Below, one piece after another: positions 1 to 13,583 of a stretch of 64,000 bases of DNA. Numbering within the stretch: position 1 is the stretch's first letter; every line of letters begins with the position of its first letter. Source of the DNA: Escherichia phage PECP14; the sequence record OQ870555.1; one strand, given 5' to 3'. Under the pieces are notes generated by a model. It was not told the DNA's origin. It did not search any database and worked only from the letters and a program-made list of their open reading frames with translations. A program made the translations under genes and the position numbers.

Positions 1-9
1 AAAATTCAT

Positions 10-127
10 TGTCGGATTCGCACATATAAAAAATATTTCCCATCGGATTTGCACACTACCAAAAATTGTCGGATTCGCACATGCACGCTGGCACGTAATC
101 CGTGGGGGCAAATGTCGGATTTGCACA
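10..127. repeat. Four dispersed copies of a 15-bp motif TGTCGGATT(C/T)GCACA (10-24, 41-55, 67-81, 113-127)
   Basis: Read directly: near-identical 15-mers at four positions in non-coding DNA at the window start; candidate protein-binding sites. Confidence 0.8.
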
Positions 128-166
128 AAAGCGCAGGGCAAATAGAAAATGCCCTGCCTGCCGAAA

Positions 167-307
167 TGCGAATGATAATGAGATTGATTCGCATTTGAGA
201 AATTGAACGCGAATGAGAATGATTCGCGTTTAGAAAGCGGAATGAGAATGGTTATCATTTACAGAATTGAATGAGAGTGATTTGCATAATGAGAATGATC
301 TGCATTT
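167..307. repeat. Five tandem imperfect hairpin repeats, unit about GCGAATGAGAATGATTCGC(A/G)TTT
   Basis: Read directly: copies at 167-195, 208-230, 236-259, 268-286, 288-307; each contains the short palindrome GCGAAT...ATTCGC; not CRISPR-like (no uniform spacers). Confidence 0.8.
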
Positions 308-339
308 AGGAGGGGAAGTGAGAAACACTGTTATTTAAG

Positions 340-348
340 TTATCCACA
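340..348 (+). promoter_or_regulatory. DnaA box (TTATCCACA, perfect 9-mer consensus)
   Basis: Exact match to E. coli DnaA box consensus TTATNCACA; part of a 24-bp direct repeat GTTATCCACAGnnTTATnAACAG (339-362 and 400-423). Confidence 0.6.
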
Positions 349-400
349 GGTTTATTAACAGCACGATTTGACTTGACAAAATCCTAGCGATTTTGAGGCG

Positions 401-409
401 TTATCCACA
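401..409 (+). promoter_or_regulatory. DnaA box (TTATCCACA)
   Basis: Exact consensus 9-mer; lies inside the left arm of the 47-bp inverted repeat. Confidence 0.6.
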
Positions 410-447
410 GACTTATCAACAGGTTATTCTACTGTATAAATATACAG
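401..447. repeat. Left arm of a 47-bp inverted repeat (partner 4040-4086)
   Basis: Reverse complement of 4040-4086 equals 401-447 with 2 mismatches; each arm contains a DnaA box plus the LexA-like palindrome. Confidence 0.85.
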
Positions 448-449
448 TA
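430..449. promoter_or_regulatory. LexA (SOS) box-like palindrome TACTGTATAAATATACAGTA
   Basis: CTGT-N8-ACAG with an AT-only centre; 19/20 match to the ideal palindromic LexA operator TACTGTATATATATACAGTA. Function inferred, not demonstrated. Confidence 0.5.
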
Positions 450-561
450 TTCCTGCGTAGTGAATAACTCTAATATAGCTCTAAAACGCTCTATAACGCA
501 TTCTAACGCGTTTATTTTTGGGGGAGGTATTTTAATAAGGGGAAATTTGTTTGCAGGCAGA

Positions 562-590
562 AAAGGCGGGGCCGATAGTTGCGCCCCGTT
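562..590 (-). terminator. Rho-independent terminator-like hairpin (CGGGGC...GCCCCG) downstream of leftward gene 595-834
   Basis: GC-rich stem followed on the minus strand by CCTTTTCT; shares the motif CGCCCCGTTATTA with the hairpin at 1862-1885. Confidence 0.5.
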
Positions 591-594
591 ATTA

Positions 595-834
595 TTAGTC
601 TGCTATGTATTCCTTCTCGTAGTCGTCAAAGATCTGGACGGTTTCGGCTGGCGTATATCCATATGAATCAAAATGCGTACATGTTGAAACTGAATTGATC
701 CACGCCCCTAGCGCCGCCGTACTAGCTCCGCTTTTCTGCATTTCTAAAAATTGCGCATATTGCGCATCAGTTAAATGATGCTGCATAATATCGGTTTCTT
801 TACGTTCTACATATCGTAAAATTCTTACAGCCAT
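595..834 (-). CDS. hypothetical pre-early protein (79 aa)
   Basis: ORF in the leftward tandem array, followed by a terminator hairpin; no recognisable motif. Confidence 0.5.
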   Translation of the reverse strand: MAVRILRYVERKETDIMQHHLTDAQYAQFLEMQKSGASTAALGAWINSVSTCTHFDSYGYTPAETVQIFDDYEKEYIAD

Positions 835-961
835 GCCATTGCTCCTAGAATGAGAATGATTATCAATATCATTGTAAAGCCATTACCAAATCGTAAACGC
901 TGGGAATGTTTCCCAGCGGTATTATTAGATTTATGACTTTGTGTTTTTCGCCACCAGCTAT

Positions 962-1174
962 TCACGGTTTTAAATTCTCTATAGTTAATTTTGCGCGAAT
1001 AGTGATTCCATATAATTCGCCTCCCTTGTTTCTTACATCAGGTAGCCAGTCCCACAATTCAGAGTATCCGCTTAAAATTCCTAGCGATGCAAGATTAGCA
1101 ATAAAACCGGCTATAGTAACCGCTTCCAGTGAAATAGTTACACGATTATTAATAACTAAAGTAAACTTTTTCAT
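962..1174 (-). CDS. hypothetical protein (70 aa)
   Basis: ORF in the leftward array; 4-nt stop/start overlap with the upstream gene 1171-1515 suggests translational coupling. Confidence 0.45.
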   Translation of the reverse strand: MKKFTLVINNRVTISLEAVTIAGFIANLASLGILSGYSELWDWLPDVRNKGGELYGITIRAKLTIENLKP

Positions 1175-1515
1175 TGCGCTACCTTTCGAAACGCTGTTTC
1201 GATACTTTCAGCGGTTGATTGAATATATGCGCCTTTCATAATCAGGCGCTCCGTACATACTTTGCGGAAAATGTCAATAAATTCATTTTCATTTTCTGCT
1301 ACTAATGGCTCTCCCATAACCTGAATATCGCATGAGTTAAAAGTAAGAAACTGAAAGGCAAGCTCGCGAGCGACAACGGCATTAATCTTATAATGTGCTT
1401 TTCCTTCATAGATATTAACCACGCCTTTATAAACTGGTGAAAGCTGATTTAAATAGTTTGCTAATAATGCCGGACGGCAATTAGTAACAAAACGATTACC
1501 CTCGTAAATAACCAT
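1171..1515 (-). CDS. hypothetical protein (114 aa)
   Basis: ORF in the leftward array; coupled to 962-1174. Confidence 0.5.
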   Translation of the reverse strand: MVIYEGNRFVTNCRPALLANYLNQLSPVYKGVVNIYEGKAHYKINAVVARELAFQFLTFNSCDIQVMGEPLVAENENEFIDIFRKVCTERLIMKGAYIQSTAESIETAFRKVAQ

Positions 1516-1624
1516 TTGTCAAGCTCCTAAAGCTGGGAAAATATCAGGTACATTTTTAAAACAAATGCAGCGAATGAGCAAACAACGCCAACGGTAGCAA
1601 ACGCTAGAGCAATATATAAGGATC

Positions 1625-1843
1625 TCATAATACCCCACGAAAAGCAGCGTAAAAGGTGGCAAAGTGTTTAACCGTTTCGGCTACCAAATTTCCGCGCTTG
1701 TCAAATTTCTTTTCAGTAACACGAAACGCGTTTTTGTTGCGTGCTACATATTCGATTTTACAATCTGGACGCTCAAACGTGTTAACATCCACCAGCTTAA
1801 AACCTTTAGAACGGGCAAGGGAAACATTCTTTAACATTTGCAT
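1625..1843 (-). CDS. hypothetical protein (about 72 aa; start refined to internal ATG preceded by AGGAG)
   Basis: The listed ORF 1625-1930 runs through the hairpin at 1862-1885; the internal Met at 1843 has an AGGAG ribosome-binding site. Confidence 0.4.
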   Translation of the reverse strand: MQMLKNVSLARSKGFKLVDVNTFERPDCKIEYVARNKNAFRVTEKKFDKRGNLVAETVKHFATFYAAFRGVL

Positions 1844-1861
1844 GACTCCTAGTAAGGGAAT

Positions 1862-1885
1862 GAGGGGCGAAAGTAACGCCCCGTT
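1862..1885 (-). terminator. Hairpin GGGGCG-N7-CGCCCC between leftward genes
   Basis: GC stem read directly; the downstream T-run is weak, so this may be an attenuator or processing site. Confidence 0.35.
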
Positions 1886-1890
1886 ATTAA

Positions 1891-2121
1891 TTACATTAAA
1901 ACAATTTTCGCCGCTTGCTTTTTGGTGCAATGTTCTGATTTCAACGTGTCCAGCAAAAATCCGGCGGTTTGCTGGTCAATCTGATCATTATCATAAAGCG
2001 CCTGAATAGTAACATAAGTTTTACCTATCCCAAATTCCGAAACCATTTGATCAATGATCCAGCGATTAGATACCCAACCTTTACCAGTGAAAAGAGAGTC
2101 AGAAGAAGAGAAAGCAACCAT
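1891..2121 (-). CDS. hypothetical protein (about 76 aa)
   Basis: ORF with GGAGG 9 nt upstream of the ATG at 2121. Confidence 0.45.
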   Translation of the reverse strand: MVAFSSSDSLFTGKGWVSNRWIIDQMVSEFGIGKTYVTIQALYDNDQIDQQTAGFLLDTLKSEHCTKKQAAKIVLM

Positions 2122-2230
2122 TTTTAACGCCTCCAAAAAATTTTGGGAAAATTTTCAATCCACCGTTTCGGTGTAAAGGCATTATAACAAAAAAGGCCGC
2201 CGATTAAGGCGACCTTTACAAAACTTTACA

Positions 2231-2725
2231 TTAGACTATTTCTAATGCTTCAATGTTGAAACAGCGTTTTAATTCTTTCTGTAAAACGGCATATTCATCC
2301 CAACGGGAATTATCAGGAATATAAACAAGCTGTTTTAATCGATTTGCGTATAATAACGCCTTGTTACCAATTATTTCCGCGCCACCGTGTTTAATAATTA
2401 GTTTCATAACGGTATTAATAGGATCGCCGCCATTTACATAAGTACCAGACTTACTCAATTGATAATGATAAAGACTCGCATATACATTATCATTTTCAAT
2501 CCATTCCCCTGTTTCTTCATCTTCTTCCCCATCGCTACCGAAACGAGAAGCATTATCATATGCGTGTTCGTTTGCGAAAGCGTCCAGATCACAGCCAGCG
2601 GGAACAAAATGTTCCTCCGTCCAGCCCTCCCCGCAATAGCCAGTATGACAATCAACTAAAACGATCATATCGTGTTTAGCTTCATTCACACTTTCTAGCG
2701 AAAAGCCATATTTTTCTTCTGACAT
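2231..2725 (-). CDS. hypothetical acidic protein (164 aa) with Cys cluster (CHTGYCGEGW...GCD)
   Basis: ORF; acidic run SDGEEDEETGEW; function unknown. Confidence 0.55.
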   Translation of the reverse strand: MSEEKYGFSLESVNEAKHDMIVLVDCHTGYCGEGWTEEHFVPAGCDLDAFANEHAYDNASRFGSDGEEDEETGEWIENDNVYASLYHYQLSKSGTYVNGGDPINTVMKLIIKHGGAEIIGNKALLYANRLKQLVYIPDNSRWDEYAVLQKELKRCFNIEALEIV

Positions 2726-2761
2726 AATTAGTCTCCTAACAATTAACAGGGAAATAGTAAA

Positions 2762-2779
2762 GCGGGGAATAATCCCCGC
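2762..2779 (-). terminator. Hairpin GCGGGGA-ATAA-TCCCCGC (same hairpin as 6168-6185)
   Basis: Perfect 7-bp GC stem; on the minus strand followed by TTTACTATTT; sits between leftward genes 2789-3790 and 2231-2725. Confidence 0.5.
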
Positions 2780-2788
2780 TAGTAATTA

Positions 2789-3790
2789 TTATTCTGTTTC
2801 GGCGCTTTGAGTAAAGGTAGAAATGTCAATACCTTTTACCATTTCATCGATCATTTCAGCAATATTGAAACTCTGTACCATTTCCAACATTGCCGCTTCC
2901 ATTGCCGCGCCTGCTACCGCTTTCGCTTTCGCATTAGTCGGGGCGTACTGGTCAACCGCTACACTCAGCAGGTTAGCGATCACTACACGACCAATCGGCG
3001 TATCAATATAACCTTTAATCATAAACGGCGCTTTTTTCGCCGCTACTTTTGTGATTTGAGTCAGTGCAATTTTACCTGCTTCCAGTTTAGCAGCGTTAAC
3101 AACGGCGGATTTATTAGCGGCAACGATAGAAGATACTTTAGACATAATATTTCCTTTATTTTCAGTAGTTTGCGCATTTGCGCTTGAAGTTTGAGAGTTT
3201 ACAGCCTGTTTTGTTACGTTGTCAAGCGGTAAAAGTGTAAATCCAGCGTTTGCAACGTTTGATTCATTCCCATACTCTAAATAATCGTTAGGGATCAACA
3301 TGTTACCGCTAGCGCGTTCAAAACACAATACGCCAGTTGTTTCGATTGCGTCACTATCAGCACCTTTATAACTGGATGATAATTCACGCCAGATACTATT
3401 TAATAACGATCCGACACTATCAAGTCTGATACTATTTACTTTTGTTGCTGTTACCTGCTCTTTTTCTTGCACGTTATATAATCGCGCAATGTAACCATTA
3501 TGAGACTCACTATAACCAACAATGATAAAATCAATATCAGTTCCCCGACTATTACGGAAAATGTGATAATCACGGTTGAAAATTACTAGCGCCCTTGTCT
3601 GGTCTAGTAATAGCGTGAAATCATCAACTGAATAATGAGTATCATTATTGTCTAAAATTTCATCGTGAATCTTTTCTACAATAGTAGCGGTATGTTGTAC
3701 GCTTGCCGCACTACTACCATCTAGCAGGTTGCGCAAACTACCCTTAATAATAGTGGCGTTTGCTGGTACTGCAATTCTTACAGTAGACAT
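2789..3790 (-). CDS. hypothetical pre-early protein (333 aa)
   Basis: Long ORF with GAGGGAG upstream of the ATG; first gene of the leftward block; no motif recognised. Confidence 0.6.
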   Translation of the reverse strand: MSTVRIAVPANATIIKGSLRNLLDGSSAASVQHTATIVEKIHDEILDNNDTHYSVDDFTLLLDQTRALVIFNRDYHIFRNSRGTDIDFIIVGYSESHNGYIARLYNVQEKEQVTATKVNSIRLDSVGSLLNSIWRELSSSYKGADSDAIETTGVLCFERASGNMLIPNDYLEYGNESNVANAGFTLLPLDNVTKQAVNSQTSSANAQTTENKGNIMSKVSSIVAANKSAVVNAAKLEAGKIALTQITKVAAKKAPFMIKGYIDTPIGRVVIANLLSVAVDQYAPTNAKAKAVAGAAMEAAMLEMVQSFNIAEMIDEMVKGIDISTFTQSAETE

Positions 3791-4039
3791 TTCTTTGTCT
3801 CCCTCGTTAATCGGTGAGTGAATGATATAGATAATTGTTCGCTAGGGGCAAGAAAAAAGAAAAGGTTTTTTATTCCTTGCCTACTGCCTGTTTTTATGAT
3901 AGCCGCGCGTTTTCTATTTCTAGCTCTCTGTAAGCGTACACAAGGCTTTATTATAATAAGGGTAGCAGTGAGAAAACGCCGTGTAGCGCGTTCTAGGCCG
4001 CTTAAATTTGATTGCGGTTGTTACTGCTACCTATTTACC

Positions 4040-4055
4040 CTGTATATTTATACAG
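4040..4055. promoter_or_regulatory. LexA box-like palindrome CTGTATATTTATACAG
   Basis: CTGT-N8-ACAG with AT-only centre; mirror copy of the 430-449 element. Confidence 0.5.
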
Positions 4056-4077
4056 TAGAATAACCTGTATATAAGTC

Positions 4078-4086
4078 TGTGGATAA
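4078..4086 (-). promoter_or_regulatory. DnaA box (TGTGGATAA = TTATCCACA on the minus strand)
   Basis: Exact consensus 9-mer in inverted orientation. Confidence 0.6.
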
Positions 4087-4126
4087 GTCGCCAAAACGTC
4101 GCCTATTGCGTCAAGTTATTTTGTGC

Positions 4127-4135
4127 TGTGGATAA
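4127..4135 (-). promoter_or_regulatory. DnaA box (TGTGGATAA)
   Basis: Exact consensus 9-mer; a fifth 8/9 copy (AGTGGATAA) lies at 4411-4419. Confidence 0.55.
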
Positions 4136-4880
4136 CTTTGTGCATAACCTAAATGATAGTGGTTCTCACTTAGTCGATAGTTTCTTATAGTTATTATTTC
4201 TCTTTAATTTATAAGTATATTATATAATATGAAATAGTTAGTTGGCTAATAGGTTTTTAGAGTATTAATAGTCTGCTAACTGTTTCAGCTGTTACAATCC
4301 ACCAGCGTGATTATCCTCCTAGCGATTGTTAGTATGCTAATGGTCTGATACACGTCCAGACTTATTTGTCAATGAAAAATAACAGCAGAAAATACTTTTT
4401 TGAAAAATCAAGTGGATAACTCATTAAATTTCATTTTTGCTTTTTGTATAAGTTATTAACAGGGTCTAAAACGCTCTGTAAGCGATTCTAAGCGCCTCAA
4501 AGGAAAAGCTAGGCAAGTGCATTGCCTACTAGCCGTTATCGCCACTATGAGGATTTTAGATTTTGTCAAGTAGGGCAAAGCAAATATAAATGAAAAAATT
4601 ACTTGCTAAAATGGTTGTTTTGGTGTTATTCGCGCGCCCATTTCATTAAATTTAGTGCGCCGCTGGACGTTTGCGGGTAGTGGTTTTCTTTACGTTTCTT
4701 TACAAAAATACGCTTGCGCCATTTTCGGGAATAACCTATTATTTATCTCGTAGGACGGCGGGACGGAAACGAAACGCAAGATTACACGGCGGGGAAGTTT
4801 ACCGCCATGCTCTTTAAAAACTAGGGAACATCTTAAAGCCTATCGGCGGTAAACTTATATAATATAAGGAATCGACGATA

Positions 4881-5099
4881 ATGATCAAATCAAAAAACGC
4901 TTTAGTGATTAGTGCGAAACCTGCTAGCGCATTAGATAGCAGAACAAAAAATTTGTTGACAGTAGCGCAACGATCTGTAAAATACAGATTCAAGCAATAC
5001 AAGAAAGGTAAGCAGCAAGGTCTGGAAATGGTGTGGCGTAATATAATGATTGATTTATATAACTCCCATCAAATCGAAAAAAGTTTAAAAAACGCTTGA
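4881..5099 (+). CDS. hypothetical small basic protein (72 aa), doubtful
   Basis: ORF bracketed by a 23-bp inverted repeat; contains an internal TTGACA-N16-TAAAAT promoter-like sequence, so it may be non-coding. Confidence 0.25.
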   Translation: MIKSKNALVISAKPASALDSRTKNLLTVAQRSVKYRFKQYKKGKQQGLEMVWRNIMIDLYNSHQIEKSLKNA

Positions 5100-5263
5100 C
5101 ACGCTAGCCGATAGGTTTTAAGATGTTCCCCGTAGTAACTGCTCTTTAAAAATTTGGATAACGGTAATGTTTAGGCTAACTCCTAGCGGATTATAATCTA
5201 ATAGCGTTTCAAAGTATCGAGGCGCTATTGTGGAATAATCCCCAATAAACCGGAGTATTAAAA

Positions 5264-5515
5264 ATGCAAAACGTTATTACCGCGCCGAAAGTAGGTCAAT
5301 CTGTTTTCATTCCTTTTGTAACTAAAACTGATGAATTAACCGGAAAAGCCGAACGTATCAAAGGTGCGGCGCTTGATCCCTTTGATAAGATTGAAGCGGT
5401 CTATGCGGAAACGGAACGCAGTAACAACGGCAAGCCTATTTATAACGTCCGTGTTAAATCTGGCGACGTTGTAAAGGTCATTCAGAAAGATGATAAATGG
5501 CAAGCTATCGCCTAA
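5264..5515 (+). CDS. hypothetical protein (83 aa)
   Basis: ORF preceded by the conserved initiation region ACCGGAGTATTAAAAATG, which recurs at 6200-6218. Confidence 0.5.
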   Translation: MQNVITAPKVGQSVFIPFVTKTDELTGKAERIKGAALDPFDKIEAVYAETERSNNGKPIYNVRVKSGDVVKVIQKDDKWQAIA

Positions 5516-5740
5516 TAGCTTATTAATAACCCGCGCCTTTAATCGGCGTAAATAAATAAGGCTAGCGCCTCATGTTAGATTTTCGATATATTAACCATGT
5601 AGTGTGAACAATGTTATGGCACACAATTTAAACTTATATGATTAGTGTTACTTTTATATTCCCCTGAAATATGGGGAATATATGGATTAACATTAGTTAA
5701 TCATAATCCCTTAATTAATAATTGAATGGAGTATTAAATT

Positions 5741-6157
5741 ATGTCTAACGTTAAAACCGAAAAAACCGCAAAATTCTCTTGGAACGAAGAAAACACTGAA
5801 AAAGCTGTTTCTATGTATTCTGAAATGGTCGCTAAAAGCGGAATTGAATTTGCTAACAGTGACGGCTTGAAAGAAATCGCCGCCGCCGTTGGTGCTGCTA
5901 GTCCGGTGTCTGTACGTTCTAAATTGACCAGTGCAAAAGCCTACCAGAAAAGCGATAAACCGCGTAAAGTTGGCGGCGGGTCTAGTATCCGTAAAGCTCA
6001 CTATGTGCGCGTCATTGCTAAACATGCCATTGATAGCGGCATTGTAAAAGATGCCGATGATCTGGCAAGTCTGGAAAGTGCAAAACTTGAAACGCTGGAC
6101 GCCGTAGCGCAATTGTTAGGCGTAGCGGAGGAAGTAAAACAGGCCGCAGGTGAATAA
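5741..6157 (+). CDS. hypothetical protein (138 aa)
   Basis: ORF with AATGGAG upstream of the start and a terminator hairpin downstream. Confidence 0.55.
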   Translation: MSNVKTEKTAKFSWNEENTEKAVSMYSEMVAKSGIEFANSDGLKEIAAAVGAASPVSVRSKLTSAKAYQKSDKPRKVGGGSSIRKAHYVRVIAKHAIDSGIVKDADDLASLESAKLETLDAVAQLLGVAEEVKQAAGE

Positions 6158-6167
6158 ATTTTAATTA

Positions 6168-6185
6168 GCGGGGAATAATCCCCGC
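6168..6185 (+). terminator. Hairpin GCGGGGA-ATAA-TCCCCGC after gene 5741-6157
   Basis: Identical hairpin to 2762-2779; followed by TATAATTTCCCTTT. Confidence 0.5.
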
Positions 6186-6215
6186 TATAATTTCCCTTTG
6201 ACCGGAGTTATTAAA

Positions 6216-6443
6216 ATGATCTTCTTTCCTAGTGAAGCGTTTATTTTAGGTTTATTTATAGTTGCCGCTATATTTATATTTAATTACGGCAAATATATAA
6301 TCTCTATTATCGGCATTAATTCAGCTTATGCCGCTGATATGTTTAAACGTCAAGCTAATAAACAAAAATATCTAGCGATTATATTTTTAACGCTGGCTAT
6401 CAGTTGCGGTTTTAGTTCTAGTCTTATGCCAATTCTAGAATAA
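6216..6443 (+). CDS. small membrane protein (about 75 aa, two predicted transmembrane helices)
   Basis: Hydrophobic stretches FILGLFIVAAIFIF and LAIIFLTLAISCGF; start taken at the ATG preceded by ACCGGAGTTATTAAA. Confidence 0.5.
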   Translation: MIFFPSEAFILGLFIVAAIFIFNYGKYIISIIGINSAYAADMFKRQANKQKYLAIIFLTLAISCGFSSSLMPILE

Positions 6444-6551
6444 TATTGCAAATTATAACGCCTTTTAAATTGTCCTCACTTCAGGCAAGGCGTTATATTT
6501 GGCAATATTGCCAGTATTAATATTTATCCCTTTATAGGAGTTGATTTAGTT

Positions 6552-8216
6552 ATGAATATTTCCGCAGAAAAACAAGCTCAAATTCTGAAAATGGCCGCAG
6601 ATTTTAACTTCTACGGTAAGCGTTTACGCGCTACTAAATTGGAAGTTTGCGACGATATTTCAAAAGCTGTTTATGATACGCCGAAACATTCGACCGCAAT
6701 TTGTGACTGGTTAGAAGCAAATAAGCCAGCGAAACCGAAAGCGGCAAAAGCTGAAAAGGCGATTAAAAATGATGATCGCCCCGAAGCGGCGGGAATTGTT
6801 TCTAGTACCGTTGAACAATGGGAAGTTAAATCCGGTCGCCGTTTTATTCTAACGTCGATTCAAAATAATACTTTCCCGCATAAAAACTTTTTAGCAAGTC
6901 TGGAAAAATTCGCTGAATATTGCGGCGCTGAATTGCTGATTAGTAAATTCATTTATAATAAAAATGGATTCCAGAACGGGGAAGGGGCAAACGGTATTAA
7001 ATACGATCCCGCATTTGATAAATATGTTTGTGATAAAAACGTATTTTTAAATAATCGCCGCTTTGCTTTCATGGCTGAAATTAACGTTTTACCAACGGCA
7101 GATTATCCGCTTTCAGGATTCGCAGAAACCGCCACGGCTTTAAATATCGAAGGTCTGGCAATTGGTCACGCTAAAATCACCGCTGAAAGTGTGCCAGCGT
7201 TAAAAGGTGAAGTCGTGCGCCGTATGTATTCAACCGGAACGGCGACACTAAAAAACTATATCCAGCAAAAGGCGGGACAAAAAGCCGAGGCTTTACATAA
7301 TTTCGGCGCTTTGCTGGTAGAGTTTGACGACGACGGAGAATTTTATTGCCGCCAGCTTGAAACAATGGACGAAAGCGGAATGTTCTACGATTTGAACGTG
7401 TGCGCTACCGCTACCGGATGTTATGAAACATCGGGCCATGTTCTAGGCTTGCAATATGGCGATATTCACGCCGAAAAACTAGATGATGATTGCGCCGTCG
7501 CTTCATGGGCTAGTGAAAACAGCTTGCTTGATATTCTTAAACCGAAATATCAATTTATTCATGATGTGCATGATTTTACATCCCGCAATCACCATAACCG
7601 CGCAAGTGGTGTATTCCTTGCTAAACAGTACGCCGCAGGACGTGATAAAGTTATTGATGATTTGATTGATACCGGTCGCGTGTTGGAATCTATGGAGCGT
7701 GATTTCTCTCAAACAATCATTGTGGAATCTAACCATGATTTAGCTCTTTCACGCTGGCTAGATGATCGTAACGCTAACATTAAGGACGATCCCGCAAACG
7801 CGGAACTGTATCACCGTCTAAACGCTGCGATTTACGCCGCTATTGCTGAAAAGGATGATACCTTTAACGTGCTAGATTACGCCTTGCGGAACGTCGCAGG
7901 ATGCGAATTTAACGCCATTTTCTTGACTACTGACCAGTCATTTAAAATCGCTGGCATTGAATGCGGCGTACATGGTCACAACGGCATTAACGGCAGTCGG
8001 GGCAATCCTAAGCAGTTTAAAAAGTTGGGACGCCTTAACACTGGTCATACTCATACGGCTAGCATTTACGGCGGCGTTTATACCGCTGGCGTGGCGGGGT
8101 CGCTTGATATGGGCTACAACGTGGGCGCGTCAAGCTGGACGCAAACGCATTTAATTACCTATGCAAACGGTCAAAGAACATTGATTGACTTTAAGAATGG
8201 TAAATTCTTTGCATAA
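6552..8216 (+). CDS. A1: A1-like pre-early protein, calcineurin-type metallophosphoesterase (554 aa)
   Basis: Phosphoesterase motifs GDIHAE and ESNHDL in the translation; size and position next to A2-like and dmp genes match my recollection of T5 A1 (about 556 aa). Confidence 0.8.
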   Translation: MNISAEKQAQILKMAADFNFYGKRLRATKLEVCDDISKAVYDTPKHSTAICDWLEANKPAKPKAAKAEKAIKNDDRPEAAGIVSSTVEQWEVKSGRRFILTSIQNNTFPHKNFLASLEKFAEYCGAELLISKFIYNKNGFQNGEGANGIKYDPAFDKYVCDKNVFLNNRRFAFMAEINVLPTADYPLSGFAETATALNIEGLAIGHAKITAESVPALKGEVVRRMYSTGTATLKNYIQQKAGQKAEALHNFGALLVEFDDDGEFYCRQLETMDESGMFYDLNVCATATGCYETSGHVLGLQYGDIHAEKLDDDCAVASWASENSLLDILKPKYQFIHDVHDFTSRNHHNRASGVFLAKQYAAGRDKVIDDLIDTGRVLESMERDFSQTIIVESNHDLALSRWLDDRNANIKDDPANAELYHRLNAAIYAAIAEKDDTFNVLDYALRNVAGCEFNAIFLTTDQSFKIAGIECGVHGHNGINGSRGNPKQFKKLGRLNTGHTHTASIYGGVYTAGVAGSLDMGYNVGASSWTQTHLITYANGQRTLIDFKNGKFFA

Positions 8217-8268
8217 TTAAATTTAATCGGCGGTTGAAATATACCGCCATTAATAAAAGGTTTATTAA

Positions 8269-8526
8269 ATGAATATTGTATTACCTAAAACACTGGATAA
8301 AAAGCAGTATATAACGCCGGATGATATGGAATGCGGCAAGGTATACCAATTCGATTATATGTTGGCTAGTCCGACGAATACAGGTTGTATTATTGCAGTT
8401 GATACCCGTGATAATGACGTATTAACGTTTAATGATTATTCTGACTTTATGGAATGGTTAGATGATCAAAGTATTACTAATAACGGCGAATTAACGCCGT
8501 ATCAATTAACAATTGCAATTAAATAA
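8269..8526 (+). CDS. hypothetical protein (85 aa)
   Basis: ORF between the A1 and A2-like genes. Confidence 0.45.
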   Translation: MNIVLPKTLDKKQYITPDDMECGKVYQFDYMLASPTNTGCIIAVDTRDNDVLTFNDYSDFMEWLDDQSITNNGELTPYQLTIAIK

Positions 8527-8562
8527 ATTAATCCCGTAATTAAATAATCTGGAGTCATAAAC

Positions 8563-8955
8563 ATGAAACAACAAAATATTCCTTTTGATCGCGCTACTTC
8601 TTCCATCGTTCTAGTTTATTCTAATGGCGAACGTTATCACGTCGAGGCGGGGCAAGTTAATTTAGATTTGCTGAATTATAACGACGCTTTGCAGGTTACT
8701 ACCTTTGCTTATGATACCGGCAAAGTGGCAAGCCATACAAAAGCAAAAGGCGTTTACGCTGATACTTTGACAGTGCAAACAATTATTATTGATGCGCTTA
8801 AATCCGGTCTAGCGTTTGCAGTTGTTAAGCCGTGTCCGGTCTGCCATCCCGAAGCTAGCGCGATGGTTTACACTTGCGCGGGGATTCGCTCTAGTGTACA
8901 TGGTGAAGATCTTAGCTTTATCGCCGATGCTCTCGCTTTTGGTCTGGCGTTCTAA
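8563..8955 (+). CDS. A2-like pre-early protein (130 aa)
   Basis: Size and position after A1 are consistent with T5 A2 (about 14-15 kDa); assigned by synteny only. Confidence 0.5.
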   Translation: MKQQNIPFDRATSSIVLVYSNGERYHVEAGQVNLDLLNYNDALQVTTFAYDTGKVASHTKAKGVYADTLTVQTIIIDALKSGLAFAVVKPCPVCHPEASAMVYTCAGIRSSVHGEDLSFIADALAFGLAF

Positions 8956-8978
8956 TAGTTAATTGAACATTGCCAGCT

Positions 8979-9009
8979 AATCTAATATAATTAGCTGGCA
9001 AGATTGAAT
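8979..9009. other. Perfect 11-bp stem hairpin TGCCAGCTAAT-N7-ATTAGCTGGCA between A2-like gene and dmp
   Basis: Read directly; no T-run follows, so it may be a processing or regulatory structure rather than a terminator. Confidence 0.5.
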
Positions 9010-9042
9010 TAACCTAAATCCCTTAAATGGAGAATGTAACAA

Positions 9043-9777
9043 ATGAATCAAGTCAACATGAATATTACCCGCACTTTCCCGCATATTTCCCGCGTTATGA
9101 TTTGGGATTTAGACGGAACGATTATAAATTCTTTCCATCGTGTAGCGCCTTGCTTTGACGATAACGGGAATTTAGATTTAGTTAAGTATTCCCGCGAAGC
9201 CTGCAAACATGAATTAATTATGCAGGATTCCTTATTACCATTGGTTGAATATATGCGCCAATGTATGAATGATCCCAATACCTTAAACCTTATTTGTACC
9301 GCTCGCTTAATGGGTAAATCTGATTATTATTTCTTGCGTAAACAAAGTCTAAGAGGGCGCGGAAATAGTAATATTCGCGTATTTTCCCGCGATACATTAC
9401 ATAAATACTTTGATGCAAATAAGGTTAGCGAAATATACCACAGTAAAGACGCTGTATATAAATCTTATTACTTTGAACTGTTTAAACAGCTATACCCTAA
9501 CGCTGATTTTACGATGATTGATGATCATAAAGGTGTATTATCGGCGGCGGCAAGTGCTGGATTTAAAACGCTGGACGCTCAAGCCGTTAATGATATCCTA
9601 TCAATCGGGGTAACATTGATCGGTGAAACCTTTATTGATGAATCGTTAGATGATGATAACGATTATCAATTCCTAGCCGAACGTTTAAAAATGTGTTGGG
9701 AAGGTATGACCGAGGAAGAACGCGCGGAATATAGTACCACACCGCAACAATTCATTGATAAATTAAAAGTTGCCTAA
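9043..9777 (+). CDS. dmp: 5'-deoxyribonucleotidase, HAD superfamily (244 aa)
   Basis: HAD motif I (IWDLDGTII) near the N-terminus; length matches my recollection of T5 Dmp. Confidence 0.75.
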   Translation: MNQVNMNITRTFPHISRVMIWDLDGTIINSFHRVAPCFDDNGNLDLVKYSREACKHELIMQDSLLPLVEYMRQCMNDPNTLNLICTARLMGKSDYYFLRKQSLRGRGNSNIRVFSRDTLHKYFDANKVSEIYHSKDAVYKSYYFELFKQLYPNADFTMIDDHKGVLSAAASAGFKTLDAQAVNDILSIGVTLIGETFIDESLDDDNDYQFLAERLKMCWEGMTEEERAEYSTTPQQFIDKLKVA

Positions 9778-9795
9778 CAATTAAAAATAAAATAG

Positions 9796-9830
9796 TCACG
9801 GTGTGTAACGATAACATGCCGTGACTATTA
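9796..9830 (-). terminator. Rho-independent terminator (stem TAGTCACGG / CCGTGACTA, then TTTTATTTTT on minus strand)
   Basis: 9-bp stem plus T-run; closes the leftward small-gene operon and lies just after the dmp stop. Confidence 0.55.
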
Positions 9831-9935
9831 GCTTGCTAAGTACCGGGGCGGTAATGAGACTCATTCTCATCTAGGGAACCTCTGGGCACACCTTCATGTG
9901 TAATCTTAGGAGATTTGGCAAAAGTCAAATTAGCG

Positions 9936-10151
9936 CTATTTACGGACTGACTGCTTGAGAATGGACTGCCATAGAGGGTCAGTCTTAACAAGATTATTGA
10001 TGTACTCAATAGCTTCATCAAATCTCATAAATCCTTCTGGAATTTCCGAAGACTTAGGAAGAACCTGTAGTAACTCCTGAGTGATGCCCATCTTTTCAAG
10101 TTCTTCTTGGGTTATCTCAAACTCCCCGAAAAACTTCCCGAATTCTTTCAT
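9936..10151 (-). CDS. hypothetical small soluble protein (about 71 aa)
   Basis: ATG at 10151 overlaps the TGA of the upstream gene (ATGA) and is preceded by AGGAGAAG; the longer listed ORF (to 10232) is probably an upstream extension. Confidence 0.4.
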   Translation of the reverse strand: MKEFGKFFGEFEITQEELEKMGITQELLQVLPKSSEIPEGFMRFDEAIEYINNLVKTDPLWQSILKQSVRK

Positions 10152-10393
10152 GAGCTTCTCCTGTCTACTGGCTTGTCTCCCGATTCTGACATACGAAATC
10201 TCCTCCGCGACGCCCGAGATCCATCCGACCACTCTCGCTCAAACTCCTCCCGTTTCTCCGCAAACCTCCGCTCCCTTTCCGAAAGCTCCCGCGATACTCC
10301 CGCAACATATTCACGATGCTTGTTAATAGCCCCGAGTGTTCCGAAGATTCCCGCAAGTACCCCGATAATGAAGATAGCTACAAAGCTAAACAT
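10148..10393 (-). CDS. small membrane protein (81 aa; N-terminal transmembrane helix, charged Arg/Glu-rich tail)
   Basis: N-terminus MFSFVAIFIIGVLAGIFGTLGA is hydrophobic; start overlaps the stop of the 34-aa ORF (TAATG). Confidence 0.45.
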   Translation of the reverse strand: MFSFVAIFIIGVLAGIFGTLGAINKHREYVAGVSRELSERERRFAEKREEFEREWSDGSRASRRRFRMSESGDKPVDRRSS

Positions 10394-10497
10394 TATTTAT
10401 CTCCCCGCAGCTTACGTTCGATACGAGCTAAATGGTTATCTAGAATGCACTGCCCGATAATTACCACAACTAGTAAAGCAATAATCACTACTTCCAT
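10393..10497 (-). CDS. very small transmembrane peptide (34 aa, MEVVIIALLVVVIIGQCILDNHLARIERKLRGDK)
   Basis: Hand-translated (below the 60-aa ORF cutoff); start and stop both overlap neighbouring genes by TAATG. Confidence 0.3.
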   Translation of the reverse strand: MEVVIIALLVVVIIGQCILDNHLARIERKLRGDK

Positions 10498-10682
10498 TAT
10501 AACCACCCCGCCATAGCTGCTAACCAAAAGAGTACAAAGATAAAGAATAATACAGTTCCGAATCCGAAACTATTTATCCAACTTTCGTATACTTCTCCGC
10601 GTCTGTTCTTTCTTCTGTTGTCGTTTGACATCTCTTTGCTTCTCCTGTAAGCCTGGTATTTGGAAGATTCTAGCAATTGCAC
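10497..10682 (-). CDS. small tail-anchored membrane protein (61 aa or shorter; C-terminal transmembrane helix)
   Basis: C-terminus FGFGTVLFFIFVLFWLAAMAGWL is hydrophobic; overlaps the upstream 104-aa ORF, so the exact start is uncertain. Confidence 0.4.
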   Translation of the reverse strand: MQLLESSKYQAYRRSKEMSNDNRRKNRRGEVYESWINSFGFGTVLFFIFVLFWLAAMAGWL

Positions 10683-10884
10683 GAACCATTACGACTGTCC
10701 CGATAAGATCCATTACTTCGTCGAAGCCGGATTCTTCTAGTAAGAAGGATGTTCCCATCACGTCTTCCATTGTATCTTCTATGACGTCTTGAATGATTTC
10801 GTTAATTGCATCATGTATTGCTTTAGTCCTGGGATCTATTTCAAAGTTAACAGGTTCCTGAAAGGACTTTTCTTCATCTTGCAT
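10570..10884 (-). CDS. hypothetical acidic protein (104 aa)
   Basis: ORF immediately downstream of llp on the same strand; acidic N-terminal half. Confidence 0.4.
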   Translation of the reverse strand: MQDEEKSFQEPVNFEIDPRTKAIHDAINEIIQDVIEDTMEDVMGTSFLLEESGFDEVMDLIGTVVMVRAIARIFQIPGLQEKQRDVKRQQKKEQTRRSIRKLDK

Positions 10885-10958
10885 TGTGTTTGCTACCTGT
10901 ACCTCATCCCAGAAATAAAAATTTTTGTTTACTTCGAGATCTTTTTACTTTATACTAA

Positions 10959-11225
10959 TTACAAGTGACCAGATTGTTCTAGTTTAAATTTGCAATCGCC
11001 ATATTTGAGGTCAAACTGTGACAAATCCCACCACCCAAACTTAGTGCGTAACTGAGTTTTAGGGAATCGGTAGCCCACAGTACGTGCTTCTCGAATATCT
11101 AAAGCATAGTGTTCTTCACCAACATGACCATAAGACTTCACGTATGCCTTACAGAATGGCTCGGGAGCCGGTACACAACCCGTCAACACTGCTGCTGCAA
11201 CTACGATGGCTAGTAACTTTTTCAT
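10959..11225 (-). CDS. llp: Llp-like lipoprotein (receptor-blocking superinfection-exclusion protein, 88 aa)
   Basis: Signal peptide plus lipobox (AAAVLTGC); divergently placed next to the receptor-binding-protein gene, as I recall for T5 llp/oad. Confidence 0.75.
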   Translation of the reverse strand: MKKLLAIVVAAAVLTGCVPAPEPFCKAYVKSYGHVGEEHYALDIREARTVGYRFPKTQLRTKFGWWDLSQFDLKYGDCKFKLEQSGHL

Positions 11226-11254
11226 AATCGTTCCTCTGTTTAATTTATAAATAT

Positions 11255-11283
11255 ATTATAGCAAAATAGAGGGATCTAAGCAA
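11255..11283 (-). promoter_or_regulatory. Early sigma70-type promoter for llp (TTGCTT-N17-TATAAT)
   Basis: Minus-strand -35 TTGCTT at 11278-11283 and -10 TATAAT at 11255-11260 with a 17-nt spacer and AT-rich downstream region. Confidence 0.6.
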
Positions 11284-11308
11284 ATACATTTTTAAAGAAG
11301 GAGATTGT

Positions 11309-13090
11309 ATGAGTTTTTTCGCAGGAAAATTTAGTGATGGTAAAACTGTATTATCTCTAAACGCTGCTAATGGTGGTGATATAAATCAGCACTACTCTCC
11401 AAATACTAATAGTATCTTCCACTCAGATATGCCCTTCGTCCTAGTTGATGGGACTTATGAGGCTGCCCTAGGTGATGCAGGTAATGGGTACTTTGTTACT
11501 CAGATGCCTTGGGATATTATAAACATTAAATCCAATGATCCTGGTAGAGTTATATTAACTGCTATTGAGATAAATGGTACTCATAGGGGTTTCCTTAATG
11601 GTACACAATCTCAGGTTGGCCAGTTCTTATCATTCTTTGAAGACCAACCACGTGCTGGTGCTGAACTGGCTATAACATCTGCTTTTGCAATCGGTGATAG
11701 TTTAGCTCACGGTACTTATATATATAATGGTGGTCTTGGTCATGAGGAATCTATTGCTAGGCAAGGAACTGGTGGTACTTTACTACAATCTTCCGGTTTC
11801 CAGATCTTTAGACCTGGTGGTGTTTCCGCAGGTGAAGCTATTTCCAGAGCCTGGGGATTAATGGGCTTTCCTACTGGTGTTTCTACTGTTCCTATAGATG
11901 GTGGTAACGCCGATTATTGGGAACCTAACTGGCAAGCGCCTGTTGGTTCTGCTGGTAGAGGCCATGATTGGTTTTATGTTTGTAATTCTAATATTCGTGG
12001 CTTCGCAGGTAAGAAAGGTGTACTACCAGATAACGTAAACGTTCTTTACCAATCTCCTGCATATCCAGAAAAAATATATGTTTGTAGAGGTTCTACTTCT
12101 AATATGGCTGCTCAGTCTGCTAGAAAGGTATATGTACAGGACTGGTATAACGTTACGCCAACTAAGGTTATTTGGTATGTGCTAAATCTGCGCTATTCTA
12201 ATGGTAGTATGGGGGTTTCTGGTAATCCATTTACCGGTTCAGATATCCTAATATCTCCATCTAACTTTACTATTAAAGGTGTTAGCCTACCAAATACAGG
12301 CTATAAATTTATTAACCAGAATGCTTTCGGAAACTTAGGCTATCGCCCTGATATGGAGTATGTTGGTAATAACGCCGCGTATACCGGAGTTTTTGGTGAT
12401 AATACTGCACGATGTGAATTTATTGGCTCTAGTAACGGTGGGTTGTGGTCACCCGTTAACTATGGGGGTGCAGCTTCTCAAATTAGCCTATATAAATTTG
12501 GTGTAGGTAAACAATGGTATGTAGATACTAATACCAACTCCATTGGTAATGAACATGGACCTGTCTGGAGTCCTAGTACTGTACCCCTCAGGTTATTCCC
12601 AGGCAACGTTGCAAGTACTTATGTAGGGGATGATATAACTCCATCCTACCCTGGTGCTGGTGACTTCTACACACCTTTGGCCACAGTTTGGTTGGGATTA
12701 CCAAATGCTCACTCTACTGTTATATTAACTACTGAAGTTATTATGGGTAATCTTAATACTGCTGGAATGCCTGTGCGTACTTATGGTGGTAGTGCTTGGC
12801 AGGTACAAGGTAGACGTCAACAAAGTTATACAGCTGGTGATGGTGTATTCCATCAGATTCTTACTCTGCCACCTGGCTATCTAGTACCTTATCACAGTAC
12901 AACTTCCTATAGTTATACACAAACTTGGGCTAGTAGGCCAGATGAGTTTGCTTTCCGTAGGAACGGATATATTTATACTATTAAAAACCTTGGTAATGGC
13001 AACGTTGAGTTGGGTGTTATCATTCACGCTGCAGAAGCGGCAGCTGTTTTCTTGCCAAGACTACGTGTAACAGTTCAACGCCTAACCTAA
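11309..13090 (+). CDS. receptor-binding tail protein (pb5-like, 593 aa)
   Basis: Large Gly/Asn/Thr-rich protein divergent from llp and just upstream of the terminase genes; assigned by synteny. Receptor specificity cannot be read from sequence. Confidence 0.7.
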
Positions 13091-13100
13091 AGGAGGATAT

Positions 13101-13583
13101 ATGGCAAATGATGTATTAGTTCCCGATCTCATGTCTCCCGAAGGCATGGATGTTATTGAAGCCTATTTACAATGCGGTAGTGATGTTCCTGCCGCTGCTC
13201 GTAGTCTTGGGATGTCCGAGATTGCATTCCGTGATATAATGAATCGTGGGGAAGTTAAAAACTATCTTAACGATATCTTTATGGAAAGCGGCTTCCGTAA
13301 TCGTGACCGTTTGTTTGGGGTTCTTGATGAAGTTATCAAGCGTAAGCTAGAAGAACTTGAAGAAACTGGCATGGGTTCTGACCAGGATATCATGGATATT
13401 CTCTGGAAGGCGCACAAGATGAAAATGGAAGAAATGAAAATGATGGTAGAACTGGAGAAAGTGAAGGCAGCAGCCCGTACTCCGGCTAACCAGACTAACA
13501 TTCAGAATAATATTATTGCTGGAAGTGGTGACGAAAACTATATGAATCTTATTACCGCTCTAGCAGGAGGAGGTAAGAGATAA
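13101..13583 (+). CDS. terminase small subunit (160 aa)
   Basis: Immediately upstream of and overlapping the large terminase (ATGA); helix-turn-helix-like N-terminus and coiled-coil C-terminus. Confidence 0.6.

Follow-up and report, generated by a model that had tools for sequence, protein, structure and literature searches.

The first 9887 nucleotides of the window, by which we mean the whole 64-kb stretch of Escherichia phage PECP14 DNA analyzed here (record OQ870555.1), very probably constitute one copy of a direct terminal repeat, ~10.2 kb long, belonging to an Epseptimavirus and short by ~340 nt on its terminus-proximal side. The phage itself belongs to Epseptimavirus (T5-like, Demerecviridae). 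The full repeat is predicted to span ~10.23 kb, of which ~96.7% lies inside the window (1-9887), with the ~340 nt upstream of position 1 absent. The initial annotation had described a complete T5-type terminal-repeat and first-step-transfer region; the assignment to the T5-type long direct terminal repeats of Demerecviridae (Markadamsvirinae) is upheld by collinearity with T5 and by the annotated repeats of relatives, while the missing ~340 nt speak against completeness. That a terminal repeat should carry pre-early, first-step-transfer genes is already known biology.

The identification is supported by a broad set of relatives. A megablast search matched 549 phage records, the best of which are 95-96% identical across 93-99% of window positions 1-12000. 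Exact queries were less productive: the 60-mer of window 1-60 had 0 hits in IMG/VR, and no record matched the A1 protein exactly. A protein identical to that of ORF 595-834 occurs in 24 contigs, among which the 10 loci compared reach no more than 96.4% nucleotide identity to the window. The repeat segment is found in two places per record in Stitch, SIY1lw, EscoHU1 and 100268_sal2, and, among the records listed, each one that exceeds 119 kb and was deposited with both ends has it in two places. Window 1-9887 is collinear, at 92-96% nucleotide identity overall and 95-96% for Stitch and SIY1lw, with the annotated repeats of four Salmonella phages of Epseptimavirus, namely Stitch (KM236244; 113494-123475, noted in the record as having identical copies at left and right), SIY1lw (PP105779; 1-10101), EscoHU1 (1-9914) and vB_SenS-3 (1-9455). 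All four resemble the window in gene order, iss architecture, the boundary at window 9887/9888 and the conserved distal end; they differ from it by small indels and by possessing the last 340 nt that the window lacks. Stitch has other sequence in place of part of window 595-1184, and SIY1lw fails to align over two short parts of the window, 5516-5640 and 8272-8525.

T5 itself (AY543070) carries annotated repeats at 1-10219 and 111532-121750, stated in its record to comprise FST DNA. This repeat has been defined experimentally, and window 1-9796 is collinear with T5 LTR positions 9878 to 105, read in descending order. The likeness extends over the whole length of the repeat, with both termini predicted at homologous positions, although nucleotide identity is only ~71-88% and protein identities across the repeat range from 45 to 93%. 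The same kind of repeat is seen in BF23 (OR083247), a phage of another genus (Tequintavirus), where it is shorter at 9743 bp (1-9743, PhageTerm). When T5-type ends are assumed, repeat lengths in relatives run from ~9.8 to 10.6 kb; the ~9.8 kb initially proposed, ending at a post-dmp terminator, was roughly right as a length, with its boundary misplaced relative to 9887/9888.

Evidence for the position of the dmp-side boundary comes from four independent annotations (Stitch, SIY1lw, the end of the Seabear record and the start of the KKP_3831 record), all of which place it at window 9887/9888, and from T5, which places it at 9888/9889. This mapped boundary is 52-90 nt further out than the ~9800-9835 given earlier. 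Among deposited records that differ, that of EH3 begins at window ~9904. The terminator reported after dmp corresponds to a strong hairpin, which folds at 9791-9829 on the plus strand with -22.9 kcal/mol (z = -6.0) and is internal to the repeat, 58-96 nt short of its end. An equally strong hairpin of other sequence occupies the same place in T5 (-30.8 kcal/mol, z = -7.9). Because it has no T-run, the window hairpin is not listed by a consensus terminator scan, and the designation "terminator" is therefore not established.

At the other end, it had been suggested that position 1 may be near a physical terminus. It falls instead in the middle of an array of conserved TCGGATTYGCAC repeats, and the homology of every relative runs unbroken through it for another 340-341 nt. 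The terminus motif GAGCCACAGRAATTTTCAC, which starts the ends of T5, SIY1lw and EscoHU1 and has a close variant in BF23, precedes the counterpart of window position 1 by 340-341 nt at 16 of 16 loci (14 distinct genomes or contigs). The distal end of the BF23 repeat as determined by PhageTerm falls at this same conserved motif, cut as GATCCACAAGAATTTTCAC/TAAAAACTCAGGCA. This right-terminus motif is not in the window, which starts inside the repeat. The distal terminus of the virion DNA is predicted to carry the motif GAGCCACAG... Just inside position 1, a motif search with the consensus of the T5 major nicks, R/GCGCRGG (PMC3517423), locates a match at 130-137 on the plus strand, with the nick expected between 130 and 131; by sequence mapping, this site is homologous to the T5 '7.9% / 99.5%' single-chain interruption, annotated in T5 at complement(9748..9749).

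These two ends bear directly on other ways of delimiting the repeat. Were it complete in the window, with a physical terminus at or beside position 1 and its other end at the post-dmp hairpin (~9800-9835), its length would be roughly right, a strong hairpin would end at 9829, and there would be a precedent of sorts in the differing boundary deposited for pork27, whose annotated right repeat starts at window ~9793, ~16 nt away from the stop codon of dmp. We nevertheless regard this as very improbable, given that the relatives' homology continues for 340-341 nt to an end common to T5, BF23, SIY1lw and EscoHU1, that position 1 is inside a repeat array, and that the other boundary falls at 9887-9889 in five independent annotations. 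A shorter repeat of ~9.76 kb ending at the nick motif (window ~131-9887), and hence lying wholly in the window, would accord with the deposited boundary of Seafire, whose PhageTerm-predicted terminal repeat (1-9592) has its end at the site corresponding to window 131/132. The Seafire end, however, is just 1 nt away from the site of the major single-chain interruption in T5 (A/GCGCAGG), and the minus-strand nick of T5 makes a 5' end that would mimic a right terminus for a read-start method. Moreover, the duplicated sequence is ~470 nt longer in T5, Stitch, SIY1lw, EscoHU1 and vB_SenS-3, and PhageTerm applied to BF23 returned the T5-type end and not the nick, so that there seems scant chance of the repeat stopping at this motif. 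The general proposition that PhageTerm repeats end at the nick was tried and dropped, being true for Seafire and not for BF23.

It might also be asked whether the segment is duplicated at all, since a sequence homologous to the T5 repeat could be single-copy in a genome that is not terminally redundant in the T5 manner. Many deposited relatives of 106-115 kb do hold one copy only, and no second copy of the segment is present within the 64-kb window. The latter is to be expected because the other copy would be more than 100 kb away, and the one-copy records come from assemblies that were collapsed or opened at an arbitrary point; OSY-STA, for example, is labelled 'partial genome' and has the repeat between late genes and early genes. 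T5 and BF23, whose termini were determined from read starts or by sequencing at each end, have the repeat, and the window contains or adjoins the two conserved end motifs or their surroundings. A single-copy segment is thus barely credible. Under the preferred reading of a direct terminal repeat, a second copy is presumably present in the virion DNA of this phage, with termini at the same places as those of its relatives. The copy in the window adjoins llp, pb5 and terminase and would therefore occupy the right repeat position, or else represent the collapsed single copy of a short-read assembly; it would not be the left copy that is injected first.

The gene content of the segment is that of a T5 pre-early region. 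Inward from 9887 one meets dmp (9043-9777, plus strand), then A1 (6552-8216) and then A2 (5741-6157), and the presence of dmp, A1 and A2 in this order from the left terminus is Davison's criterion for true T5-like phages. The three proteins are 88-90% identical to those of T5: Dmp, a deoxynucleoside-5'-monophosphatase, shares 88% amino acid identity, with PF26880 on its homologues; A1, a DNA transfer and host DNA degradation protein encoded on the plus strand (phrog_1745), shares 90% over 556 aa; and A2, the DNA-binding protein required for second-step transfer, also on the plus strand (phrog_1725), shares 89%, with PF26822 Phage_T5_A2 on its homologues. The earlier naming of A1, dmp and small pre-early genes was correct, as was the expectation of an A2 gene, which resides at 5741-6157 and not at 8563-8955. 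The latter interval instead encodes a T5.002 homologue (73%, plus strand).

The remaining plus-strand genes are a homologue of T5.008 at 4881-5099 (DUF7416), lying between the arms of a 24-nt inverted repeat (4824-4847 and 5107-5130) and probably identifiable from gene order as the host division inhibitor hdi; a T5.007 homologue at 5264-5515 (DUF7177); a T5.005-like small membrane protein gene at 6198-6443; and a small pre-early gene at 8269-8526. On the minus strand, ORFs and homologues define a second pre-early operon at 595-3790, comprising ORFs at 595-834 and 962-1174, homologues of T5.015 (1171-1515, 89%), T5.014 (1625-1837, 93%) and T5.012 (1891-2136, 90%), a 164-aa ORF without T5 counterpart (2231-2725), and a T5.011 homologue (2789-3790, DUF7566, 56%). 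Relative to T5, then, the window repeat has this one extra gene; it is without the hegG HNH endonuclease and has no detectable homologue of T5.003, 009, 013, 016 or 017.

The dense repeats noted at the outset resolve into two non-coding regions, 1-594 and 3791-4880. In the first of these, a motif search finds four copies of the direct repeat TCGGATTYGCAC at 8-128 on the plus strand, corresponding to what Davison (bioRxiv 10.1101/866236) names the 'DRD' array in Repeat Region 3 of T5. This motif has five matches in 64 kb versus 0 expected, four of them at 12-126, and relatives have more copies within the 340 nt upstream of the window. An adjacent plus-strand array of direct repeats containing AATGAGAATGAT (family D1, units of ~30-50 nt) occupies 165-337, with seven copies at 165-299 having at most two mismatches (two exact, four with one and one with two).

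Davison describes the iss as a large untranslated inner-end region with an IRD'-spacer-IRC' arrangement, a distant inverted partner and paired DnaA boxes (10.1101/866236). Here, too, an injection-stop core of this IRD'-spacer-IRC' form is seen at 316-447, with DnaA-box pairs at 340-348 and 352-360 and at 401-409 and 413-421. Its inverted partner, an IRC-spacer-IRD arm of 132 nt and 78% complementary, lies at 4040-4171 and bears minus-strand box pairs at 4066-4074 and 4078-4086 and at 4127-4135 and 4139-4147. Across the two arms there are eight DnaA or DnaA-like boxes in four pairs, each pair 3 bp apart, and the arms hold five of the seven consensus DnaA boxes of the whole 64 kb. The 132-nt inverted repeat and the 3-bp spacing of the paired boxes agree with Davison's description, and T5, which annotates its iss at 9140-10149, shares the pair of arms, the DnaA boxes and, at the same place, the major nick motif. 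The central non-coding region, 3791-4880, in which the second arm is embedded, corresponds to a fusion of Repeat Regions 1 and 2 of T5, without the hegG HNH insertion, an insert that is absent from most T5-like phages (Davison, 10.1101/866236). It contains promoter-like sites for both of the divergent operons.

Beyond 9887 the structural module had been expected to start immediately, yet llp is reached only after ~1.07 kb in which four small ORFs lie on the minus strand (9936-10884). Those at 9936-10151, 10148-10393 and 10570-10884 correspond to annotated homologues in Stitch and SIY1lw; that at 10497-10682 is an ORF call only. There follow an llp-type lipoprotein gene (10959-11225, minus strand), pb5, encoding the receptor-binding protein (11309-13090, plus strand), and a T5-type large terminase gene (13583-14899), with the late module continuing in the same window from terminase through portal, major head/capsid, tail tube and tape measure. 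Compared with T5, llp is non-homologous and pb5 just 29% identical, and this sequence divergence suggests that the receptor differs from that of T5.

Immediately outside the repeat, and not part of it, is a conserved unstructured element, ACACCTTCATGTGTAATCTTAGGAGATTTGGCAAAAGTCAAATTAGCGC, at 9888-9936. These ~49 nt are kept in T5, pork27, DaisyDussoix and HildyBeyeler, in which the flanks do not align; between Epseptimavirus and Tequintavirus, that is, the element persists where its surroundings have diverged or been replaced. Neither strand has a significant fold (z = -1.1 and +1.1), and a hairpin or terminator role is therefore unsupported. A column-conservation profile across the boundary was discarded as evidence for the element, being circular in that the loci had been chosen by that same motif. 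One might speculate that the element and the conserved distal end motif together form a candidate cis signal directing a T5-type terminase to the left-end cut, although we consider this rather doubtful; the literature searched yielded no description of such a terminase site. If the idea were true, the element and the distal end motif would set the repeat boundary.

The terminal-repeat biology of T5 has been known since the work of the 1960s to 2000s. By extension from T5, the virion DNA of this phage would carry the repeat at both ends, and the left copy would enter the cell first, halting at the injection-stop region (~1-594), which includes the DnaA-box inverted repeat at 316-447. The two divergent pre-early operons would then be read out of 3791-4880 by host RNA polymerase, A1 and A2 would let the remaining genome in, and Dmp and the other pre-early genes would take over the host. 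The cis elements and genes for such a two-step injection are present, and by analogy with T5 the phage probably uses it.

With this biology long known for T5 and already annotated in its close relatives, the value of the result lies chiefly in annotation. The repeat boundary in the window sequence is fixed at 9887/9888, and the window, possibly along with its source record, opens 340 nt inside the repeat and not at a terminus. For the T5-like phages more generally, there is a note of caution here, in that collapsed assemblies and read-start methods may misplace their ends.

The beginning of the window is collinear with the left terminal repeat of phage T5 (record AY543070), from T5 9878 down to 105, and according to that record the left repeat comprises the first-step-transfer (FST) DNA, with the right copy annotated at 111532-121750. 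When window 1-12000 was compared by megablast with 50,697 phage records, 549 matched, none of them identical, the top matches being Epseptimavirus phages (Demerecviridae, Markadamsvirinae) of Salmonella and Escherichia, including OSY-STA, STK8t, Stitch, SIY1lw and EscoHU1; the best relatives show 95-96% identity across 93-99% of the query. In records of close relatives that include both genome ends, the segment occurs in two places and is annotated as a terminal repeat, of 9982 bp in Stitch (left and right copies noted as identical), 10101 bp in SIY1lw, 9914 bp in EscoHU1, 9455 bp in vB_SenS-3 and 9743 bp in BF23 (PhageTerm). Together with a matching injection-stop (iss) architecture, this upholds the identification of the segment in the initial annotation as a T5-type terminal-repeat/first-step-transfer region. 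The feature is a textbook one, already known for T5 and annotated in related phages at 95-96% identity; it had been recognized correctly, but with two boundary errors.

The gene content claimed for the segment (A1, A2, dmp and small pre-early genes) is confirmed by T5 homologues at 45-93% amino-acid identity per window ORF, and assignments by T5 homology agree with PHROG and Pfam matches. On the plus strand lie the homologues of T5.008 (4881-5099, 68%; the name hdi follows from gene order), T5.007 (5264-5515, 82%), A2 (5741-6157, 89%), T5.005 (6198-6443, 45%), A1 (6552-8216, 90%), T5.002 (8563-8955, 73%; a 130-aa ORF adjoining dmp) and dmp itself (9043-9777, 88%). On the minus strand are those of T5.015 (1171-1515, 89%; 114 aa), T5.014 (1625-1837, 93%; 70 aa), T5.012 (1891-2136, 90%) and T5.011 (2789-3790, 56%). 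A reading of the T5.002 homologue as A2 was rejected. For four ORFs (595-834, 962-1174, 2231-2725 and 8269-8526) a T5 counterpart was not detected; all are found in Epseptimavirus relatives. Two labels deserve comment. The family phrog_4227 ("endonuclease nicking abasic sites generated by host Ung") matches the T5.014 homologue, in conflict with Pfam PF26847 (Phage_T5_AP_Endonuclease) and the literature (gene 015), which favour the neighbouring T5.015 homologue. SIY1lw labels its T5.011 homologue "DNA N-6-adenine methyltransferase", which looks unsupported: the only Pfam and PHROG matches of the window protein are to DUF7566 and to PHROGs without a known function.

The dense repeats and hairpins that had been claimed are also real, and well above chance: four copies of TCGGATTYGCAC at 12-126 (five in the whole 64 kb versus zero expected), a AATGAGAATGAT-type array at 165-337, a 132-nt inverted repeat in which 316-447 pairs with 4040-4171 at 78% complementarity, and a strong hairpin at 9791-9829 (-22.9 kcal/mol, z = -6.0). 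In T5-like phages, the iss region is described as having a 131-bp IRD'-spacer-IRC' element toward the inner repeat end and, at a distance of several kb, its inverted partner IRC-spacer-IRD; the two jointly hold eight DnaA or DnaA-like boxes paired with 3-bp gaps (Davison, bioRxiv 10.1101/866236). The non-coding architecture of the window fits this description. DnaA-box pairs occupy the plus strand of the first arm (340-348 with 352-360; 401-409 with 413-421) and the minus strand of the partner arm (4066-4074 with 4078-4086; 4127-4135 with 4139-4147), the distance from pair to pair being 61 bp, start to start, in both; of the seven TTWTNCACA consensus boxes that the entire window contains, five lie in these arms. 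Unlike T5, the window has no hegG HNH endonuclease, which separates T5 Repeat Regions 1 and 2, and its central non-coding region (3791-4880) is therefore a single block, unsplit as in most T5-like phages (Davison, bioRxiv 10.1101/866236).

The T5 major-nick consensus R/GCGCRGG (quoted in PMC3517423) has only two plus-strand matches in the window. Both stand where major single-chain interruptions are annotated in T5: one, at 130-137 (A|GCGCAGG, break at 130|131), at the place of the 7.9%/99.5% nick in the iss region, the other, at 42164-42171, at that of the nick within D13, an SbcC-like gene. This suggests that the site-specific nicks are conserved in PECP14. The iss-type repeat TCGGATTTGCAC recurs once, in isolation, within the D13 homologue (41776-41787), 388 nt away from the nick motif there. 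The G+C-rich palindrome AGCGGGGAATAATCCCCGCTA (21 nt) is found in identical form at 2761-2781, 3' of the T5.011 homologue (minus strand), and at 6167-6187, 3' of A2 (plus strand); one terminator-like hairpin appears to be used twice, once in each of the divergent pre-early operons. Terminators are annotated at the counterpart of the post-A2 site in Stitch and downstream of gene 011 in T5.

Where the repeat ends on the dmp side was determined by aligning the window to the repeat/unique junctions of three annotated genomes, which place the last repeat base at 9887 (Stitch, SIY1lw) or 9888 (T5, by left terminus and right-repeat junction alike). Two further, independent depositions concur: Seabear stops at the base homologous to 9888, and KKP_3831 starts at the one homologous to 9887; the annotated boundaries of pork27 (~9793) and EH3 (~9904) deviate. 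The presumed terminator after dmp (~9800-9835), at which the repeat had been thought to end, is instead a hairpin inside it. In T5 (about 70-110) a hairpin of different sequence has the same position and comparable strength (-30.8 versus -22.9 kcal/mol; z = -7.9 versus -6.0), which points to selection acting on structure; a T-run is absent from the window hairpin.

Directly outside this boundary, a stretch of ~49 nt at 9888-9936, ACACCTTCATGTGTAATCTTAGGAGATTTGGCAAAAGTCAAATTAGCGC, is kept in the Tequintavirus phages T5, pork27, DaisyDussoix, HildyBeyeler and a BF23 fragment, in which the flanking sequence is unalignable or swapped for an HNH gene. A significant fold was not found in this element, a candidate cis-acting signal in packaging or the formation of ends and the only part of the analysis with some novelty. 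The structural module had been expected immediately beyond the repeat; four small minus-strand ORFs intervene, three with homologues annotated in Stitch and SIY1lw and the fourth (10497-10682) an ORF call only, before llp (10959-11225, minus strand) and pb5 (start at 11309), so that the module lies ~1.1-1.4 kb off. The window llp and pb5 are nearly identical to the Stitch and SIY1lw versions, while T5 llp has no detectable similarity to its window counterpart and the two pb5 proteins are only 29% identical, a divergence that suggests a receptor other than FhuA.

At the other boundary, window position 1 aligns to T5 9878, and the T5 repeat ends 341 nt further on, at 10219. In a multiple alignment of repeat ends (T5, SIY1lw, EscoHU1, Stitch, vB_SenS-3), GAGCCACAGRAATTTTCACTTGTCAAGC is the common starting point of the right end of T5, the end of SIY1lw and the junction of repeat and unique DNA in EscoHU1; the Stitch and vB_SenS-3 ends lie 4-5 nt further out, and the PhageTerm-derived BF23 end falls at a variant form of the motif. 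The motif stands 340 or 341 nt upstream of the position-1 homologue in 16/16 loci having both landmarks; these come from 14 different genomes or contigs, among which are metagenome and Logan assemblies with a collapsed repeat. Homology is unbroken across position 1, which falls within the TCGGATTYGCAC array, and the relatives' equivalent of the missing stretch holds at least three further copies. Judged from these comparisons, position 1 is an arbitrary cut 340 nt within the repeat and no terminus. With T5-type ends, the full repeat is predicted at ~10,228 bp, of which 9,887 (96.7%) would be present in the window. The shear-defined FST segment of T5, about 9618 bp from the left end (Davison, bioRxiv 10.1101/866236), maps approximately to 160-9887, still within the window.

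The literal initial reading, a complete repeat with its terminus at position 1 and its end at the post-dmp hairpin, is thus contradicted by the junction alignments, the end alignment and the invariably upstream GAGCCACAGRAATTTTCACTTGTCAAGC. A shorter repeat, ending at window ~131, would follow the annotation of Salmonella phage Seafire (MK050846), whose "terminal repeat predicted with PhageTerm" ends at 1632 of that locus (window ~131/132), about 470 nt short of the end common to T5, BF23, SIY1lw and EscoHU1. This is unlikely, in that ~131 sits 1 nt from the place of the T5 major single-chain interruption (window 130|131), the duplicated sequence in five other genomes goes on for about another 470 nt, and the BF23 PhageTerm end is the T5-type end. 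A nick in Seafire was probably taken for a terminus, not as a general artefact of PhageTerm, since the BF23 end so derived is the true one. That the segment is single-copy in PECP14 is likewise improbable, because T5 and BF23, T5-like phages with experimentally or read-determined ends, carry the repeat.

Past the repeat region, genes for large terminase, portal, major head, tail tube, tape measure and tail fibre follow in order on the plus strand, succeeded on the minus strand by early genes that include those for DNA polymerase and helicase; relative to the T5 map, the window is the right arm in reverse, and its plus strand is therefore the T5 minus strand. The window copy, which adjoins llp, pb5 and terminase, is by analogy the one standing where T5 has its right repeat, "not essential until DNA replication begins" (T5 record). 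In the collapsed OSY-STA assembly and metagenome contigs, a single copy is flanked by late genes on its dmp side and, at its opposite end, by early genes starting with the T5.018 homologue.

Promoter-like sites occur in and around 3791-5130, for example TTGACA-16-TAAAAT at 4956-4983 within the hdi homologue, the place corresponding to T5 promoter P-H22. A family of ~60-nt elements with TATATTATA and A/T-rich flanks, on the minus strand, looks like T5-type strong early promoters, with one member within the repeat's central non-coding block (4198-4257), one directly upstream of llp (11234-11293) and eight between 45102 and 60911. The sequence itself shows only that the cis elements and genes are there and how they are arranged; the injection steps established for T5 are inferred for PECP14. 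On that scheme, the left repeat copy would enter the cell first, transfer would halt temporarily at the iss region, and host RNA polymerase would transcribe the two divergent pre-early operons. Host DNA degradation would require A1, with the released dNMPs dephosphorylated by Dmp; the gene 015 product would serve as the Ung-dependent nicking nuclease, hdi would block cell division, and second-step transfer would require both A1 and A2.
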